Assembly: GCA_963837175.1 (NCBI GenBank)
Contig: CAWIMJ010000032.1
Coordinates: 1-12,952 of the forward strand
Direction: 5' to 3'
Origin: an uncultured Nitrososphaeraceae archaeon
Lineage (GTDB): Archaea; Thermoproteota; Nitrososphaeria; Nitrososphaerales; Nitrososphaeraceae
Length of the DNA stretch: 12,952 nt
Part shown: positions 999-12,222 of the stretch, piece after piece
Numbering within the stretch: position 1 is the stretch's first letter
Layout of the letters: each line of letters opens with the position of its first letter
The notes under the pieces: model-generated
The model's database searches: none
Told to the model about the DNA's origin: nothing
Seen by the model: only the letters and a program-made list of their open reading frames with translations
Translations under genes and position numbers: made by a program

Positions 999-1049
999 CA
1001 CGAGTTCGGTGGAACCCAAGACAGATTTGACTCAAATTTACCACCCAGA
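999..1049 (+). repeat. Dispersed palindromic site, copy R1
   Basis: CACGAGTTCGGTGGAACCCAAGACAGATTTGACTCAAATTTACCACCCAGA; 42/51 identical to R2 without gaps; GGTGG...CCACC inverted arms. Confidence 0.92.
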
Positions 1050-2172: not shown

Positions 2173-2223
2173 CACGGGTTCGATGGAATGTGGGACAGAA
2201 TTGACTCAAATATACCACCCAGA
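2173..2223 (+). repeat. Dispersed palindromic site, copy R2
   Basis: CACGGGTTCGATGGAATGTGGGACAGAATTGACTCAAATATACCACCCAGA; 42/51 identical to R1 and 42/51 to R3. Confidence 0.92.
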
Positions 2224-4214: not shown

Positions 4215-4553
4215 TATAGTTTAGTAGAATTTTTACCTTATAAAATGATCAAGTTCTCATTAGTTTCTAATTTAACTATATTATTGATTTGTCAGCCTCA
4301 GATAACATTATTGCACATAACCAGTCAAGAAAACGCTAAATTTGACTTTGTTTCATGTTAGGGACATTTTGTGTTATTTAGGGACACTCCTAGGAGTTTA
4401 TGCTCCGTATTTAGCACAGGCTAATAATCACTGATATCGTAACAGGTTAGGTGGTATTAGGTCCCAGCATGTATACGGGTTCTGTTGTTTTGTTAATTTA
4501 GCTTTTCTTTCACTTACAGAGTGTGAACTAGGAATATCTAGTAGAGACTTAAT

Positions 4554-6281
4554 TCAAAGTTTGCAACCCACTAAAATTGGGCTTACTATTATTTTTACAG
4601 ATTCTAATGGTACTAAATCAGGACCAACTATATGTCTTGTTGTTCTTGTATCATCATGTGTTGCTATGTGAGTGAAGTGTGTGCATACCAAACTACAATA
4701 TCCTTGTTCTTAATAAGCTCATGATTCACAAAGTTATCTAGTTGAGCTTCAGAAGGTGAACCTAGTGCCACAATTCCATCATCAAACTGATTTAAACGAT
4801 TCTTTAAAAACCAGATGTCTCTTTTCCCAAAACTATCGGCAATGCCATCATTAGCACCTGGATTGATCAAATAACCTTTACTTGTTTGTTGGTTTTGGAT
4901 TCTCCATTTTCTGTTACTTGAAGGATTTCTTAGCCTCTTAGTTTCATATTTGATCAAATGCCAATTTGATGAGCCTGATATTGGAGGATCATTCGTACTC
5001 TTCTACTACATTCTTTTTTGTATTTCCTACATCAAAGTTGAGTCTCCAGTATACATGGTGGTGATGAGGATTACAAACACAAGAGTCAGTGACAGCACTA
5101 AAACCAAACCGTGGTTTTATAGTTCCATTTGCATGAAGACGCCATTCACTTATGTAGCGATACCATCCTGCCTTCATCTCACTTGCCAGTACTATTTCTT
5201 CTAGTCCATCTACATAAACGGCTACACCAAGAAAGTTTCCCTGATTGCTTCCACTGGCAAGAATTGTTTTAGCTGGAGTGGGACATAATCGAAAACCTGG
5301 TATGACATCATCACCATTTGCTTCAATCATACTTTCTTGCCATTGCCAATCTCTGAAAGGACCGCAAGCATCATGATCATACTGTACGTTTAGGATTGGA
5401 ACATTTGCTCTACGAAGAACTCTTTTTCCCTTATAGTTTACATATTGCAGTTCTATGCCAGAACCGTTTGTTCCTGAAGAAGCAGCTGGTCTTGTTACTA
5501 TGAAATCCCATAGTAATGTATTTCCTTGAGTAACTGTCACTTTGGCACTTCCTGGTGTTCCTCTAGCTGCCGTAGGTTGATTAGCATCAGGAGAGCCACA
5601 AACTAATTCTTCAGCTCTAGAGTTTGCAGGTGCTCTATTATCAAATCTAACAATGGCTTTGTTAATCATATTTACTGCCACAATCTCATGTTGATATTTA
5701 GAACTGCTGTTACTATTACCACCACCACTATTTGTAGGTCGAAGCCCAACACAGAGCGTCCTTTCTATATCTCCATCAGGAGTTTCTTGTATAAATAGAG
5801 GAGGCATTGGTTGATATGGCTTTAAAATGTTGTTCTGTATTGATTCGCCTATACTTGGTTCGCTTTGGCTAAGTATTCGCAACGCCTCCTTCAAACTCTT
5901 CATCATTTGGCAATGGTTGTTGTTTTGATTCGATTATTTCTGTAGGATTGCGTTGACCAAGCTTACCTTTAACGGAAAGACAGCAATTATTCTCATAATC
6001 ATAGTATTTAGCTAAATAGGATTTTGGTAAGGCAATACGCTTGGTGGCGGCAGTAGCAACAGTTTCTGGAAGGAGCTCAACAGATAATAGCCTAGGTGTT
6101 TGTTTATTTCTTTTTCTTTTCTAATTCTTCACCACTTATACTTTTAAGGTAACTTCTGACCTTTGGACGATTAAGAAGTTTACTTGTGAGAGAATTAATA
6201 TTTCTGAGACGTGGGTCCAAAAGGAATCAGTTTTACAACTATTTTATCTTGAGAGCTATTCCCATTATTGGACAATATCAT
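4554..6281 (-). pseudogene. Copper amine oxidase-like protein, frameshifted (main ORF pieces 4989-5906 and 4664-4957)
   Basis: Motifs resembling the copper amine oxidase catalytic domain: GWYRYISEWRLHANGTIKP, HHHHVYWRLNFDVG, NKDIVVWY..HFTH. Manual reading joins frames from MILSNNG (6281) to HIVGPDLVP via about five 1-nt indels (near 6221, 6110, 5890, 4993, 4683). Confidence 0.7.
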
Positions 6282-6402
6282 CTTACAGTATCTATGTTCT
6301 TAAAAAGTATTTTTGATTCTAACAGCACCAAATCAAGAAGGCCATCAGGAGAGCCATTATATTATAAATTATTATAAAATACCTATTCAACTATGTAAAG
6401 TC

Positions 6403-6453
6403 TACGGCCTCGGTGGGATGTTGGACAGAATTGACTCAAATATGCCACCCAAT
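6403..6453 (+). repeat. Dispersed palindromic site, copy R3
   Basis: TACGGCCTCGGTGGGATGTTGGACAGAATTGACTCAAATATGCCACCCAAT; best hairpin of the set (GGTGG-G-ATGTT pairing with AATAT-G-CCACC). Confidence 0.92.
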
Positions 6454-6731
6454 TTCTTACATTAATTCCTATTCAAGTGAATATGCTTGACCTTTGTTTT
6501 TATTATCTGTTAATTCAGCTTTGGTATCTTCTTCCTTACTAATTACTTAAAGTTCCAGGCACACCTTTCTGTTGTTTGCTGTATATTATTAAAATTATTT
6601 TATTAATTGTGTATTTTCTATTTTTATACTTAGCTTAGAGACATGACAAAATATGGCCTGTTGTTTACCAAAAGTTAATTTTACAAGACTATCTATAGTA
6701 TTCCTTATATACTCATTATCATGCTTTTCGG

Positions 6732-7579
6732 ATGTTGTTCCTGAAAATAGTAGCGATAGTTATTTCTCTTCTCTATTCTATGTCCTCCTTGTTTTATGCT
6801 ACAACTCTCACAGTTAATGCTCAATCAGACTTACAGACAATAAAATATAGAAATTTAGTTATAGATTTAGGTAATGGTTTAAAGACTAATGCTAGGCTAA
6901 ATCTTCCATCTATTGGTGACGGTCCATTCCCAGGTGTCCTTCTTGTTCCTGGCTCTGGACCTGTTGATATGAATGAAACTGCAGGCTACGTTCGTACAGA
7001 TAACGAAACAGGCTCAATTATTTATCCGCCTGCTAGACCGTTCTTTGATATAGCTAAATATCTTTCAGAAAGAGGCTTTGCAGTTTTGCAGTATGACAAA
7101 AGGGGCATAGGTGCAAATTTTACAATTTTGGATAGCAATGTATGGGGGAATGCTACATTTGACGATCTAACACAAGATGCAGAGAAGGCGCTCGATGTTC
7201 TTGTACAGCAACCAGAAGTTGATTCTAACAATGTAATTCTAGTTGGACATAGCGAGGGTAAATGGTTGTCCCAAGAGTTGCAATCAACAATCCAGGTATA
7301 GTAGATAATATTGTACTGATGGGGGCAGTGGCCCAGAACTTGCGTGAAATAGGATACTCTCAAGGTGTTAGCACTCCAATACTCTACGCTCAACAGGTTC
7401 TAGACCATAATCACAATGGATTGATATCAGGTACAAGAAGCGTCAGAGAATCCTGTTTTCAGCTCTTTGGTCGGAAATCTCACTCTAGTTCTTGCTCAAA
7501 ATATTACTACTGTCAATGGGACAGCCGAGCAACTCAATTCCCAATATAATTTAAACAACGACACGTCCATAAGCATTAA
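6732..7579 (+). pseudogene. Secreted alpha/beta hydrolase (serine aminopeptidase/esterase-like), frameshifted and apparently truncated at site R4
   Basis: Signal peptide, GVLLVPGSGP, GFAVLQYDKRG and nucleophile motif GHSEG. Continues through frames 7262+ and 7467+ (indels near 7260 and 7431). No segment with the catalytic Asp and His is visible after 7580. Confidence 0.85.
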
Positions 7580-7620
7580 CGGTGGGATGCAGACAGATTT
7601 GACTCATTTTCTCACCCAGA
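7580..7620 (+). repeat. Dispersed palindromic site, copy R4
   Basis: CGGTGGGATGCAGACAGATTTGACTCATTTTCTCACCCAGA; 14-bp core identical to R1, each arm 1 nt shorter, left flank replaced by hydrolase coding sequence. Confidence 0.88.
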
Positions 7621-7816
7621 CTCATTTTCCAGGTATAACAATGCTGATGCACACATTTAAAGGGTCAAATAATGGGGTGTGAAGTATAGTTGCCGTCACA
7701 GATGGAAAATTAGACTTTGGTCCATGAGACTAGAGATATTCTATTATGGAGAATTTGATGGTCGTAGAAATAAGAGAGTATTAGTGAAAGTAATTGGTGT
7801 TGATGAATAGATCTCA

Positions 7817-8353
7817 TTATCTTTTCTGTCTTGATAATGCAGCAATTATGGGAGCATCATTGTTACCAACTACTTCTACTAATTCAGACCAGGTTGCTGA
7901 AGAAACATAAGGAATCTTCTTGACTTGTTCTAATATATTGTATAATTCTGATGAAGTGTTGTATATAATCTCAGTTATAACGTTATTTACGTCATTAATA
8001 CGTGTAGATGAAGATATCGCATTACTTTTATTTCTTTCAAGAATGATTTTTGCTACTTCTTTAGCCTTTCCTCTTTCCACATTTGCCAAAATAATTCCAG
8101 TTCTCAAACCTCCTTTCTTTATGTCTATGAGATATTTCTTTTCTAATATGGAGTCCACAAGCCTTTTTCTTCTTCTCTGAATAGTAGATATAGGAACCTT
8201 ATATTTAGATGCAATATCTGCACTTCTGATATCAGCTTTAGCTAGTAATTCTCTGATTATATTAATATCAATAGAGTCTAAAGGAAACATTTGACTGTCC
8301 TTTTCGTTAATTTTTTCACTTCCAATTGTAGGATTACTTAATTTTCGCCTCAT
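7817..8353 (-). CDS. Lrp/AsnC family transcriptional regulator
   Basis: N-terminal LDSIDINIIRELL...SADIASKYKVPISTIQRRRKRL winged HTH followed by a RAM-like domain; alternative start at the internal Met (MFPLD). Confidence 0.88.
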   Translation of the reverse strand: MRRKLSNPTIGSEKINEKDSQMFPLDSIDINIIRELLAKADIRSADIASKYKVPISTIQRRRKRLVDSILEKKYLIDIKKGGLRTGIILANVERGKAKEVAKIILERNKSNAISSSTRINDVNNVITEIIYNTSSELYNILEQVKKIPYVSSATWSELVEVVGNNDAPIIAALSRQKR

Positions 8354-8381
8354 ATTTTCAGTATACCAGCAATAATTACTC

Positions 8382-8397
8382 TATACTCAGCAGTATA
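8382..8397. promoter_or_regulatory. Candidate operator palindrome upstream of the Lrp/AsnC gene
   Basis: TATACT-CAGC-AGTATA perfect inverted repeat about 30-45 bp upstream of the start; a further half-site AGTATA at 8360. Confidence 0.4.
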
Positions 8398-8414
8398 AGA
8401 ACCCCTATATTAGC

Positions 8415-8458
8415 AAGTTCGATGGATACATGACAAATTTGACCATTTGCAACTCGAA
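8415..8458 (+). repeat. Dispersed palindromic site, degenerate copy R5
   Basis: AAGTTCGATGGATACATGACAAATTTGACCATTTGCAACTCGAA; GTTCGATGGA shared with R2, core GACAAATTTGAC, own TTCGA...TCGAA arms. Confidence 0.75.
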
Positions 8459-8591
8459 AAGAGTAGATTATATCATGCATATGTTGGTAGTGATCTAACA
8501 ACATTCCTACAGCTTTAAATAAAATTAAGAGATTGTAGGAAGAGGTAGGAGAAATAATTATTTAGATAAATAATAATACCTCTGTCTTATC

Positions 8592-9071
8592 TTATCTTAT
8601 CGTTTCTTCTTTTATCAAAGTTTTACGTGCTGTAGATATCAAATATACTGACATGCCAATCATTATTACTTGAAGTGCTTTACTAACCATGTCTAGCTTG
8701 CCTATGTAATACTCTACTCCCACTATTGGAACACCAATTGTTCTAGATGCTACATACGTTGCAATTAATATAACAGATACTGCTGCTACAACAATGTATG
8801 GAATCTTACTTCTAATCTTTGTCTTAAGGATCCAAACAAATAATCCAAGATATACAATTCCAGCGCCTATAAAAAGAGTCATTTCAACTTGTTTTTCTTG
8901 TGTTTCACCTTGGATACCTACTTCCAAAAATTCAAGTAAATCGCCATATTCTTGTGATGCAACTATAAAGTAGATTACAGCTGTTGATACTATTAGTGCT
9001 AACAAAATATACATTATAATAATGGAGCAAGAGGTGATAGACATCTTTCTTATAAACAACTTATCATACAT
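8592..9071 (-). CDS. Hypothetical four-helix membrane protein
   Basis: Intact 159-aa ORF with four hydrophobic segments; loop ASRTIGVP and GKLDMVSKALQ. Confidence 0.82.
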   Translation of the reverse strand: MYDKLFIRKMSITSCSIIIMYILLALIVSTAVIYFIVASQEYGDLLEFLEVGIQGETQEKQVEMTLFIGAGIVYLGLFVWILKTKIRSKIPYIVVAAVSVILIATYVASRTIGVPIVGVEYYIGKLDMVSKALQVIMIGMSVYLISTARKTLIKEETIR

Positions 9072-11392: not shown

Positions 11393-12222
11393 TTAAGATA
11401 ATTCAGCAGATTTATCATCCCAGTTTAGAATCACATTCTTTATTATATAGCCATCTGCACCTACAGCAGGAATGGATTTGAAAAAATCTCCTTCTATTAA
11501 TTTGGAACGAGAAAGAATATCATGGATGTTGTCTCTATTATTATTCTTTGAGTTTGCAGATTCTTTAGCATATATTTTCTTGGCACTTTCAATTGCATGA
11601 GGTAAATCAAATAATATACCATGAAGATTGGGATTATTCTTTAGAATAGTTAATAAAAGCATTCCTTGTCCTCCTCCAATATCAATAATAGTATTAAATT
11701 GTGAAAAATCATACATAGAAGAGATTAATGAAGCGTGTAAGGAGGTAAGCGAAGCCATTACGCTGTTAAATATTTGAGCCTCTTTTTGATTTTGCTCAAA
11801 ATACTCATATATTTCCAAGCCGTTTGCATGTTTAAATGAATTCTCCCCAGTTTGTATGCTGTATAAAAGATTATCTATAGCTTTCTTAAATGGTTCTATC
11901 AAAACAATAAAGCAAAATTTCTAATTGAATCTTTTGCTTCAGATTGAAGAAGAGATGCCATAGGTGTTAGCTCAAATCTTCTTATTCTTGTTTGATTAAC
12001 TTGTTGTTCTTGTTTTTCTCCTTCTTTCTCTTCTGCTTTTGTTTCACCAAATATACCAATGCTAGCTAGCATATGCAATAACCTATAAAGAGAATCAGGA
12101 TGAGTTTTGGTCTCTTCTGCTAATTTCTCAAGGCTTTTAGGACCATCTTTTAAATAATCAGTTATTCTTAGCTTTGCAACAATGTATATAGCCTGAGTAG
12201 TTAACTGGTCGCGAGCAAGCAT
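11393..12222 (-). pseudogene. SAM-dependent O-methyltransferase (Methyltransf_2 with N-terminal dimerisation domain), frameshifted and C-terminally incomplete
   Basis: AKLRITDYLKDGPKS..LAEET..HPDSLYRLL dimerisation domain; IIDIGGGQG, LFDLP, GDFF, ADGYIIKNVILNWDD. Split near 11900; after a further shift near 11401 it reads IILKNCLEAMK and then stops. Confidence 0.88.

Follow-up and report, generated by a model that had tools for sequence, protein, structure and literature searches.

A hydrolase gene broken at the core edge of a modular intergenic repeat in a Nitrososphaeraceae archaeon

Genes and repeats of the locus

The window, meaning here the whole stretch of DNA analysed, is contig C32 (12,952 nt) of the draft genome G000, an assembly of 3.81 Mb with 34% G+C in 58 contigs, 91.5% complete and with 3.2% contamination. 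G000 encodes an archaeal AmoA, and the related records bearing the repeat described below are Nitrososphaeraceae/Thermoproteota metagenome-assembled genomes (MAGs); the organism is therefore taken to be a soil ammonia-oxidising archaeon. Such archaea are difficult to cultivate, we know of no genetic tools for them, and what is known of change in their accessory genomes comes largely from elements integrated at tRNA genes. The related genomes G001 to G005 were used for comparison, and contig numbers without a genome label refer to G000. Population data were Logan contigs from three DNA soil metagenomes of three studies (X1, X2 and X4) and from one RNA run (X15).

At the locus, a truncated gene for a secreted alpha/beta hydrolase runs into a copy of a repeat of about 50 nt, termed R, which is followed by a second gene fragment and an intact regulator gene (Table 1).

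Table 1. Features of the window bearing on the hydrolase junction
Feature	Position	Strand	Details
R1, full copy	999-1049	+	Left module CACGAGTTC and core GGTGG..CCACCCAGA
R2, full copy	2173-2223	+	SnoaL-like gene and R2 left module shared with C1:10574-11235; similarity ends at +8
R3, full copy	6403-6453	+	C at 6411, GGTGG at 6412-6416
Hydrolase pseudogene (secreted, alpha/beta type), 5' two-thirds only	6732-7579	+	Cut after codon ~283 of 433-439
Junction, last hydrolase base A (7579) joined to first R4 base C (7580)	7579-7580		0 nt microhomology
R4, left-truncated, decayed repeat core	7580-7625	+	CGGTGGGATGC-AGACAGATTTGACTC-ATTTTCTCACCCAGA and CTCATTTTCCAGGT; the G002 orthologue is a complete long-form copy
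3' fragment of a UPF0047/YjbQ-family gene, ~60 codons, out of frame	7626-7810	+	86% identical to the intact C12 copy
AsnC/Lrp-type HTH regulator gene, intact	7817-8353	-	Start codon ~25 nt from the long-form left module of R5
R5, diverged long-form copy	8378-8455	+	TACTCTATACTCAGCAGTATAAGAACCCCTATATTAGCAAGTTC and GATGGATACATGACAAATTTGACC..

Elsewhere in the window, the first ~1 kb (1-1000) holds no ORF of at least 40 aa in any frame, and 721-962 is a dispersed repeat with at least seven related copies in G000 (76-84% identity). At 11393-12222 (minus strand) an O-methyltransferase is apparently split into two ORFs, one with the dimerisation domain (11899-12222) and one matching Methyltransf_2 (11393-11902) over profile positions 7-144 of 210 only; it is probably another broken gene. 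Two adjacent minus-strand ORFs at 4664-5906 give weak, sub-threshold matches to different parts of PF01179 (copper amine oxidase; 17.7 and 20.3 bits, cut-off 27) and may be a decayed gene.

The truncated hydrolase gene

The ORF at 6732-7301 encodes the N-terminal part of the hydrolase and scores 30.4 bits against PF12146 (cut-off 27) and 24.1 bits against PF00326 (cut-off 22.6); the full-length G003 orthologue reaches 47.6 bits with PF00326, 41.1 with PF12146 and 38.8 with PF00561. With its signal-like N-terminal segment, core fold and GHSEG elbow, the product resembles enzymes of the Hydrolase_4, Peptidase_S9 and Abhydrolase_1 families, but differs from active alpha/beta hydrolases in being cut before the acid and the histidine and in carrying two frameshifts. 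The nucleophile elbow (VILVGHSEG), whose GxSxG pattern is invariant in eight homologues, stands directly before the first frameshift. Both frameshifts are single-base changes, one base missing near 7260 and one extra G at 7430, and past them the frame reads ...NNDTSISIN into the C-GGTGG of R4. Contigs of all four runs have one base more after 7260 and one fewer at 7430, which restores the frame; the absence of the frameshifts from other strains fits decay after truncation.

Homologues were found in 17 of 41 genomes searched, most of the full-length ones being open frames of ~420-450 aa. The closest two are the orthologues of G003 (439 aa, 86% identity over the N-terminal ORF) and G001 (433 aa). 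DNA alignment with the G003 orthologue covers window positions 6426-7578 (90% nucleotide identity over 1159 nt), and alignments with the G001 orthologue (80%) and with a paralogue on C1 (89%) reach 7579. Since similarity to all three copies stops at 7578/7579, the hydrolase DNA ends at 7579 (..CATAAGCATTAA). The sequence-only reading had described the hydrolase frame as running straight into C-GGTGG and had proposed checking whether similarity to full-length homologues ends there; both points were confirmed, with a boundary sharper than it had given.

About 145 C-terminal residues are missing, as judged by alignment with eight homologues. In that alignment the conserved G.ND..(T/S)P motif, which carries the Asp, and the (D/N)LGH motif, which carries the His, lie beyond the break, and both are absent from the window, in agreement with the earlier remark that no acid and His follow the GxSxG serine. 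With its 3' third gone, catalytic Asp and His included, the gene now passes at codon ~283, without microhomology, directly into the left edge of the R4 core. Truncated before two members of the triad and twice frameshifted, it cannot encode an active enzyme.

The missing 3' half, for which a search next to other repeat sites had been suggested, was not found beside one in G000. A tblastn search with the G003 protein returned only a pseudogene on C1 (residues 128-432), a 48% paralogue on C16 and a small fragment on C34; the C1 copy is a second pseudogene, diverged and 5'-truncated. Contigs of the RNA run X15 reached only portions of the hydrolase gene and the AsnC-type gene (90-95% likeness) and are uninformative about R.

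The junction and R4

The GGTGG of R4 occupies 7581-7585 and is preceded by the C at 7580, so that the last Asn codon (7578-7580) is a hybrid of two sources. The intact gene reads ..ATTAA/TGACG, the complete R4 ..GATT/CGGTGG and the window ..ATTAA/CGGTGG. Membership of R4 in the family was examined against the core GGTGG - GACAGAWTTGACTC - CCACCCAG: R4 has the GGTGG, a centre that agrees fully with R1, and CTCACCCAGA with two 1-nt deletions. The identity to R1 is 16/16 over AGACAGATTTGACTCA, flanked by GGTGG and CACCCAGA. None of the family's left modules (aCGGGTTC, long form or B type) precedes the R4 core; hydrolase coding sequence stands there instead, and repeat alignment bore out the earlier statement that the left part (C/T)ACGRSYT of R1-R3 is replaced in this way. 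A 25-mer of R4 matched R4 alone, and none of 200 shuffles matched.

Three features of the locus went beyond that earlier description, namely the two hydrolase frameshifts, a frame passing through R4 and the UPF0047/YjbQ fragment. The frame stays open to 7682 (71 codons) and is due to chance. The fragment is 85-86% identical in nucleotide sequence, over 161 nt, to copies on C12 and C14; the intact C12 protein scores 131.9 bits with PF01894, and the window piece by itself gives no Pfam match. R4 is therefore flanked by two gene fragments, those of the hydrolase and of the UPF0047/YjbQ gene. At the orthologous locus of G002, a different species (87-91% identity), a PhnB-like gene is followed by a complete long-form R4 and then by the same UPF0047 fragment. 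As G002 shares the join of R4 to this fragment, that join is old. G002 also keeps the left module of R4, whose loss is specific to G000.

A lineage-specific repeat family

The consensus of R is aCGGGTTC/GGTGGGATGCaGGACAGAwTTGACTCwAtTtTgCCACCCAGa. At least 45 copies lie in G000 within 11 mismatches of the 41-nt core; a stricter pattern gave 33 matches, against none for the reversed control. The family motif gave 28 matches in G000, likewise against none when reversed. Within the genus the stricter pattern was present in all six further genomes; beyond it, 4 of 18 further family members and none of 16 genomes from other families of the order had it. Across 185,579 species, each represented by one genome, it matched 26 stretches, all in Nitrososphaeraceae/Thermoproteota MAG records; an R pattern had no match in a viral contig collection. 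The closest spacing observed within the family occurs in one Nitrososphaeraceae MAG record (L128, 3443-3577), where two same-strand cores lie 107 nt apart.

All 46 G000 copies examined are intergenic, none overlapping an ORF of at least 90 aa. No orientation preference was seen in the flanking genes (upstream 22 plus and 19 minus, downstream 17 plus and 25 minus). Recurrent neighbours within 3 kb of these copies are His kinases, alpha/beta hydrolases, SnoaL proteins, methyltransferases and a deacetylase. Many copies stand at contig ends, and R would for this reason explain why short-read assemblies break there. Near-identical stretches of up to ~10.6 kb are shared between G000 contigs (C26/C28/C40, C30/C31, C23/C35, C45/C51 and C8/C55), with ends often near repeat copies; they are either true multi-copy islands or strain variants separated by the assembler.

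R was rejected as a structured RNA gene, with no Rfam family at E<=1, no tRNA or tmRNA, no consensus structure and no covariation. In 66 copies, covariation of the GGTGG/CCACC arms was 0.118 vs 0.116 in shuffles, 174 of 500 shuffles reaching 0.118, and RNAalifold predicted no pairs. Conservation of sequence and not of structure points to a protein-binding DNA element, and R is probably such a binding site. In the literature searched, on Nitrososphaera-type MITEs, archaeal integrons and attC cassettes, and thaumarchaeal integrated elements, no description of the repeat was found; a term search within a survey (PMC6563490) likewise yielded none. The family thus appears undescribed in the literature searched, and it is a more interesting object than the junction itself.

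Exchange of partners around GGTGG

Left modules occur as a short form (aCGGGTTC), a long form containing two inverted repeats (TACTCTATACTCAGCAGTATAAGAACCCGTATAGTTAGCGGGTTC; 14 copies in G000) and a B form (AAGACAGATyTGAyATCTATGC) common to G000, G001 and G003. Beyond GGTGG, copies with the long left module carry either the canonical core or a right module of one of three other kinds; every right module has its own palindrome of 9-13 nt. Among the copies of G000, and among 76 from ten related genomes, left and right modules pair combinatorially in this way.

The window supplies several examples. The SnoaL-like gene and the R2 left module are 93% identical to C1, where the similarity ends at +8 inside R2 and another right module follows the gene and its R2-type left module. 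The 2 kb of R3 left flank (4451-6419) are 92-93% identical in G003 and G004, joined there to a different right module, and the R3 core with its spacer of ~280 nt travels with the hydrolase gene in G003 and G005. Each half of R thus goes with the DNA on its own side, left with left and right with right, and the GGTGG region is a recurrent place at which partners have been exchanged. Upstream of the truncated repeat before the intact G003 hydrolase (L011, G003:C298, ~130-180), the minus strand resembles the T-arm and acceptor end of a tRNA (GGTTCAAATCC...).

A second coding sequence is fused to a truncated R core on C11 (10666/10667), also without microhomology. There a copy of window 8356-8906, 96% identical, breaks off and continues as TGCAGGACAGAATTGACTC..; the gene concerned, a homologue of the window gene at 8592-9071 (minus strand), is cut at the equivalent of 8906, and the repeat begins at position +8 (TGCAGGACAG..). 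The preferred repeat edge is therefore not one fixed base. Relative to GGTGG, paralogous segments of at least 90% identity end at -7, -4, +7, +8, +11, +37 and +42, that is, at both core edges and not at one bond.

On a rival account R plays no active part: a commonplace illegitimate deletion, in a region rich in pseudogenes, ended by chance at a repeat edge, and the modularity is only a relic of old homologous exchange between dispersed repeats. Many genes of the region are indeed broken (the split O-methyltransferase, the amine-oxidase-like fragments and the UPF0047 fragment), other hydrolase fragments of G000, on C1 and C34, are cut at places without R, the C11 join lies at a different repeat position, and homology alone can account for partner switching between copies that share modules. 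However, the hydrolase ends within 1 nt of a module boundary that recurs in several other left-replaced copies (C14, C29, C30/C31, the B-type family and L038/L081), the microhomology that microhomology end-joining would require is lacking, and two independent joins of a coding sequence to R exist in one genome. On balance a passive role seems rather improbable.

Alternative arrangements in soil metagenomes

X1, X2 and X4 contain both flanks of the junction at ~99% identity. No Logan contig of these three metagenomes runs across 7579/7580, and depth in the bin 7532-7608 equals the sum of contigs stopping at 7579 and contigs starting at 7580 (7591 in X2). One X1 contig (record 6) matches the window over 7414-7579 except at the extra base of 7430 and then reads TGACGAACTTAAACCCAGACTAATAGACCG, the intact hydrolase as in G003; its continuation past 7579, TGACGAACTTAAACCCAGAC.., equals the G003 coding sequence. 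Alignments of X2 record 22 and X4 record 30 also stop at 7579 despite further letters in these contigs. The hydrolase continues intact past this point in contigs of X1, X2 and X4, and orthologues and near-identical metagenome contigs read on as ..TGACGAACTTAAACCC...

The R4 side is equally variable. X1 record 7 and X4 record 31, from two studies, join 6410 directly to 7580, skipping 1,169 nt, with the 10-nt CGGTGGGATG common to both sides of the joint. In X2 the long-form left module (..GTTAGCAGATTC) precedes the R4 core. The core is thus found with three left partners, namely hydrolase coding sequence (G000), the R3 left flank (X1, X4) and the long-form left module (X2, G002), and the R3 left flank with three right partners. 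In the relatives examined (G002 and G003) the hydrolase and R4 are not adjacent, and neither the exact 29-mer of the junction nor the exact R4-core pattern had a match in a metagenome contig collection.

A break of DNA and a new joining at the C-GGTGG edge, as originally proposed, is well supported by these data: orthologues and metagenome contigs carry the hydrolase past the break, and the left module of R4 is kept in G002 and X2. With no bridging contig in three metagenomes, an intact hydrolase and an R4 with other left neighbours, the break is probably strain-specific. It is probably also real, although no independent data set contained it. Absence of the junction from the contig collection and from three metagenomes that hold both flanks would also be expected of an assembly chimera; the draft consists of 58 contigs, some of them near-duplicates, with 3.2% contamination, and consensus errors could account for both frameshifts. 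Against this, the intact hydrolase and the complete R4 have no overlap by which an assembler could join them, a random chimeric read within the repeat would have a chance of ~1 in 50 of hitting the module boundary, and the left join, between the R3 left flank and the R3 core, recurs in an X2 contig (record 17). A chimera is, in our judgement, very unlikely. Since a gene is broken exactly at the start of a repeat and related strains show other arrangements, the repeat marks a place of genome reshuffling.

The form without 6411-7579 invites a different account, a conservative, site-specific, integron-like insertion of a 1,169-nt unit (R3 core, spacer and 5' part of the hydrolase) into the C/GGTGG pivot of a complete repeat, for which a recombinase would be needed. 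The unit would have been excised elsewhere, one of its ends being a secondary site in the hydrolase, the recipient would have been the X1/X4 form, and the pivot CGGTGGGATG would now stand duplicated on both sides. The segment absent from X1 and X4 begins exactly at the R3 pivot and ends exactly at the R4 pivot, the recipient would lose and gain nothing, and fewer events are needed than for a deletion, counted on the alleles seen. Left modules travel with the upstream unit and right modules with the downstream unit, as in cassette arrays, and single-gene units lie between same-strand repeats in several contigs. Yet ATTAA/TGACGAACT, the sequence at the hydrolase break, agrees with the pivot in no more than 3 of 10 positions, the genes beside R point either way, other segments end at -7 to +11 and at +37 to +42, and a deletion between two 10-nt direct repeats yields the same picture. 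Neither an attC-like R''/L''/L'/R' layout nor hairpin covariation was found, and the window and the arrays have no integrase beside them, the six PF00589 matches of G000 lying elsewhere. We regard such an insertion as unlikely.

Search for an enzyme

A recombinase adjoining the window or the R arrays, or co-distributed with R, was not found. Searches of G000 returned no Y1_Tnp (PF01797; 91.5% complete genome, with control matches in 6 of 14 genomes), no TnpB (PF07282) and no IS110; a Y2_Tnp search gave no match in G000 and likewise none in its controls. Of the six tyrosine recombinase matches (PF00589), none is on the window contig, and one, inside the R-rich island of C12 (C12:23199-23834), is a truncated fragment; further tyrosine recombinases lie on C2, C19, C45 and C54. 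A single serine recombinase of 207 aa (PF00239, 116 bits) is encoded at C47:137571-138191 (minus strand), inside a biotin cluster (bioD/bioA ... bioB/bioF-like ORFs). As a single-copy gene it is present in 22 of 24 other family genomes at 67-94% identity and therefore does not track R; conservation across the family is unusual for a gene of the resolvase/invertase type.

Several candidate mobile elements were rejected. R is unlikely to form the end of an IS or MITE, its neighbours being ordinary accessory genes and not transposases. A 1.7-kb repeat with R-like inverted ends on C26, C27 and C35 holds no transposase. G000 also contains two insertion-sequence families of ~0.7-0.8 kb, presumably IS6-like (C5:15682-16369 with ~6 further copies and C3:62333-63130 with ~5), which have ends GGCTCTGTTCACTTAAC... 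and a transposase-like ORF of ~196 aa, several copies being frameshifted; as a partner of R the multi-copy IS6-like element was discarded, its ends GGCTCTGTTCACTTAAC being unrelated to R. By the usual marks of a MITE, R has only the 5-bp GGTGG/CCACC arms, with no flank duplication visible among the copies listed and no autonomous element found; by those of an integron, it has no integron-type tyrosine recombinase next to an array and no imperfect hairpin kept in structure.

The sequence-only reading had gone further and taken the repeat for an active junction. An active, site-specific junction is not supported, given the second join at +8, the scattered segment ends, the lack of a linked recombinase and the lack of covariation; such a role is plausible but unproven.

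Comparison with known systems

Bacterial REP/BIME elements are ~40-50 nt long, strictly intergenic, present in tens of copies, mosaics of palindromic modules and sites of rearrangement. R resembles them in being short and intergenic, in its tens of copies with interchangeable palindrome modules in either orientation, and in marking rearrangement sites. It differs in being archaeal and confined to one Nitrososphaeraceae lineage, in the absence of a RAYT/Y1 transposase from a 91%-complete genome, in 5-bp GGTGG/CCACC arms that do not covary and in lacking inverted doublets.

In deletions adjacent to insertion sequences, and at solo MITE ends, one end lies exactly at the element edge and the other at an arbitrary place inside a gene, without microhomology. 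The hydrolase junction has this form, one end at a repeat edge and the other within a gene with no microhomology, but no target-site duplication is visible beside the R copies listed and no autonomous partner was found, the ends of the IS6-like element being unrelated.

Integrons have been reported in archaea (10.1101/2022.02.06.479319). As with attC sites and cassette arrays, copies of R separate single-gene units, the repeat halves travel with different neighbours, and a unit bounded by two repeat pivots in one strain is absent in others. Unlike integrons, the arrays have no integron integrase beside them, no R''-L''...L'-R' layout and no structural conservation; genes lie in both orientations, the repeats are dispersed over many contigs, and the "cassette" ends mid-gene.

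A proposed origin for the junction

We tentatively favour the view that a real rearrangement, specific to this strain, left the junction as a scar in an island of accessory genes that is decaying, most likely through a deletion from hydrolase codon ~283 to the edge of the R4 core. R would be a lineage-specific modular intergenic element built of variable left modules, the GGTGG pivot and a right module with a palindrome of 9-13 nt, and DNA would tend to break and be exchanged at the edges of its core. Once the hydrolase would have lain in cis with a complete R4, the DNA between codon ~283 and the R4 core edge being later deleted, and the X1/X4 form without 6411-7579 would most likely have arisen when the R3 and R4 cores recombined across the CGGTGGGATG that they share. 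The deletion route uses ordinary processes. It needs a cis arrangement that no relative examined shows and that is therefore hypothetical.

A bolder proposal casts R as the site at which a so far unrecognised archaeal system for gene shuffling recombines DNA in soil Nitrososphaeraceae. In such a system, units of GGTGG core, gene or genes and left module might be exchanged, inserted and excised at C/GGTGG by a putative recombinase. The hydrolase/R4 join would then be the scar of an excision through a secondary in-gene site and of re-integration at another R, in an integron-like manner with unrelated sites and enzyme. This seems quite unlikely.

Implications for ammonia-oxidising archaea

A lineage-specific element of 50 nt marks where neighbouring DNA is swapped between strains and species, and R would explain the fragmented, pseudogene-rich islands of ammonia-oxidising archaeal genomes. 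If no dedicated enzyme acts on it, the locus would be a clean natural example of repeat-associated gene decay. If a dedicated enzyme does, R would belong to a new archaeal recombination system and could offer a possible handle for genetics.
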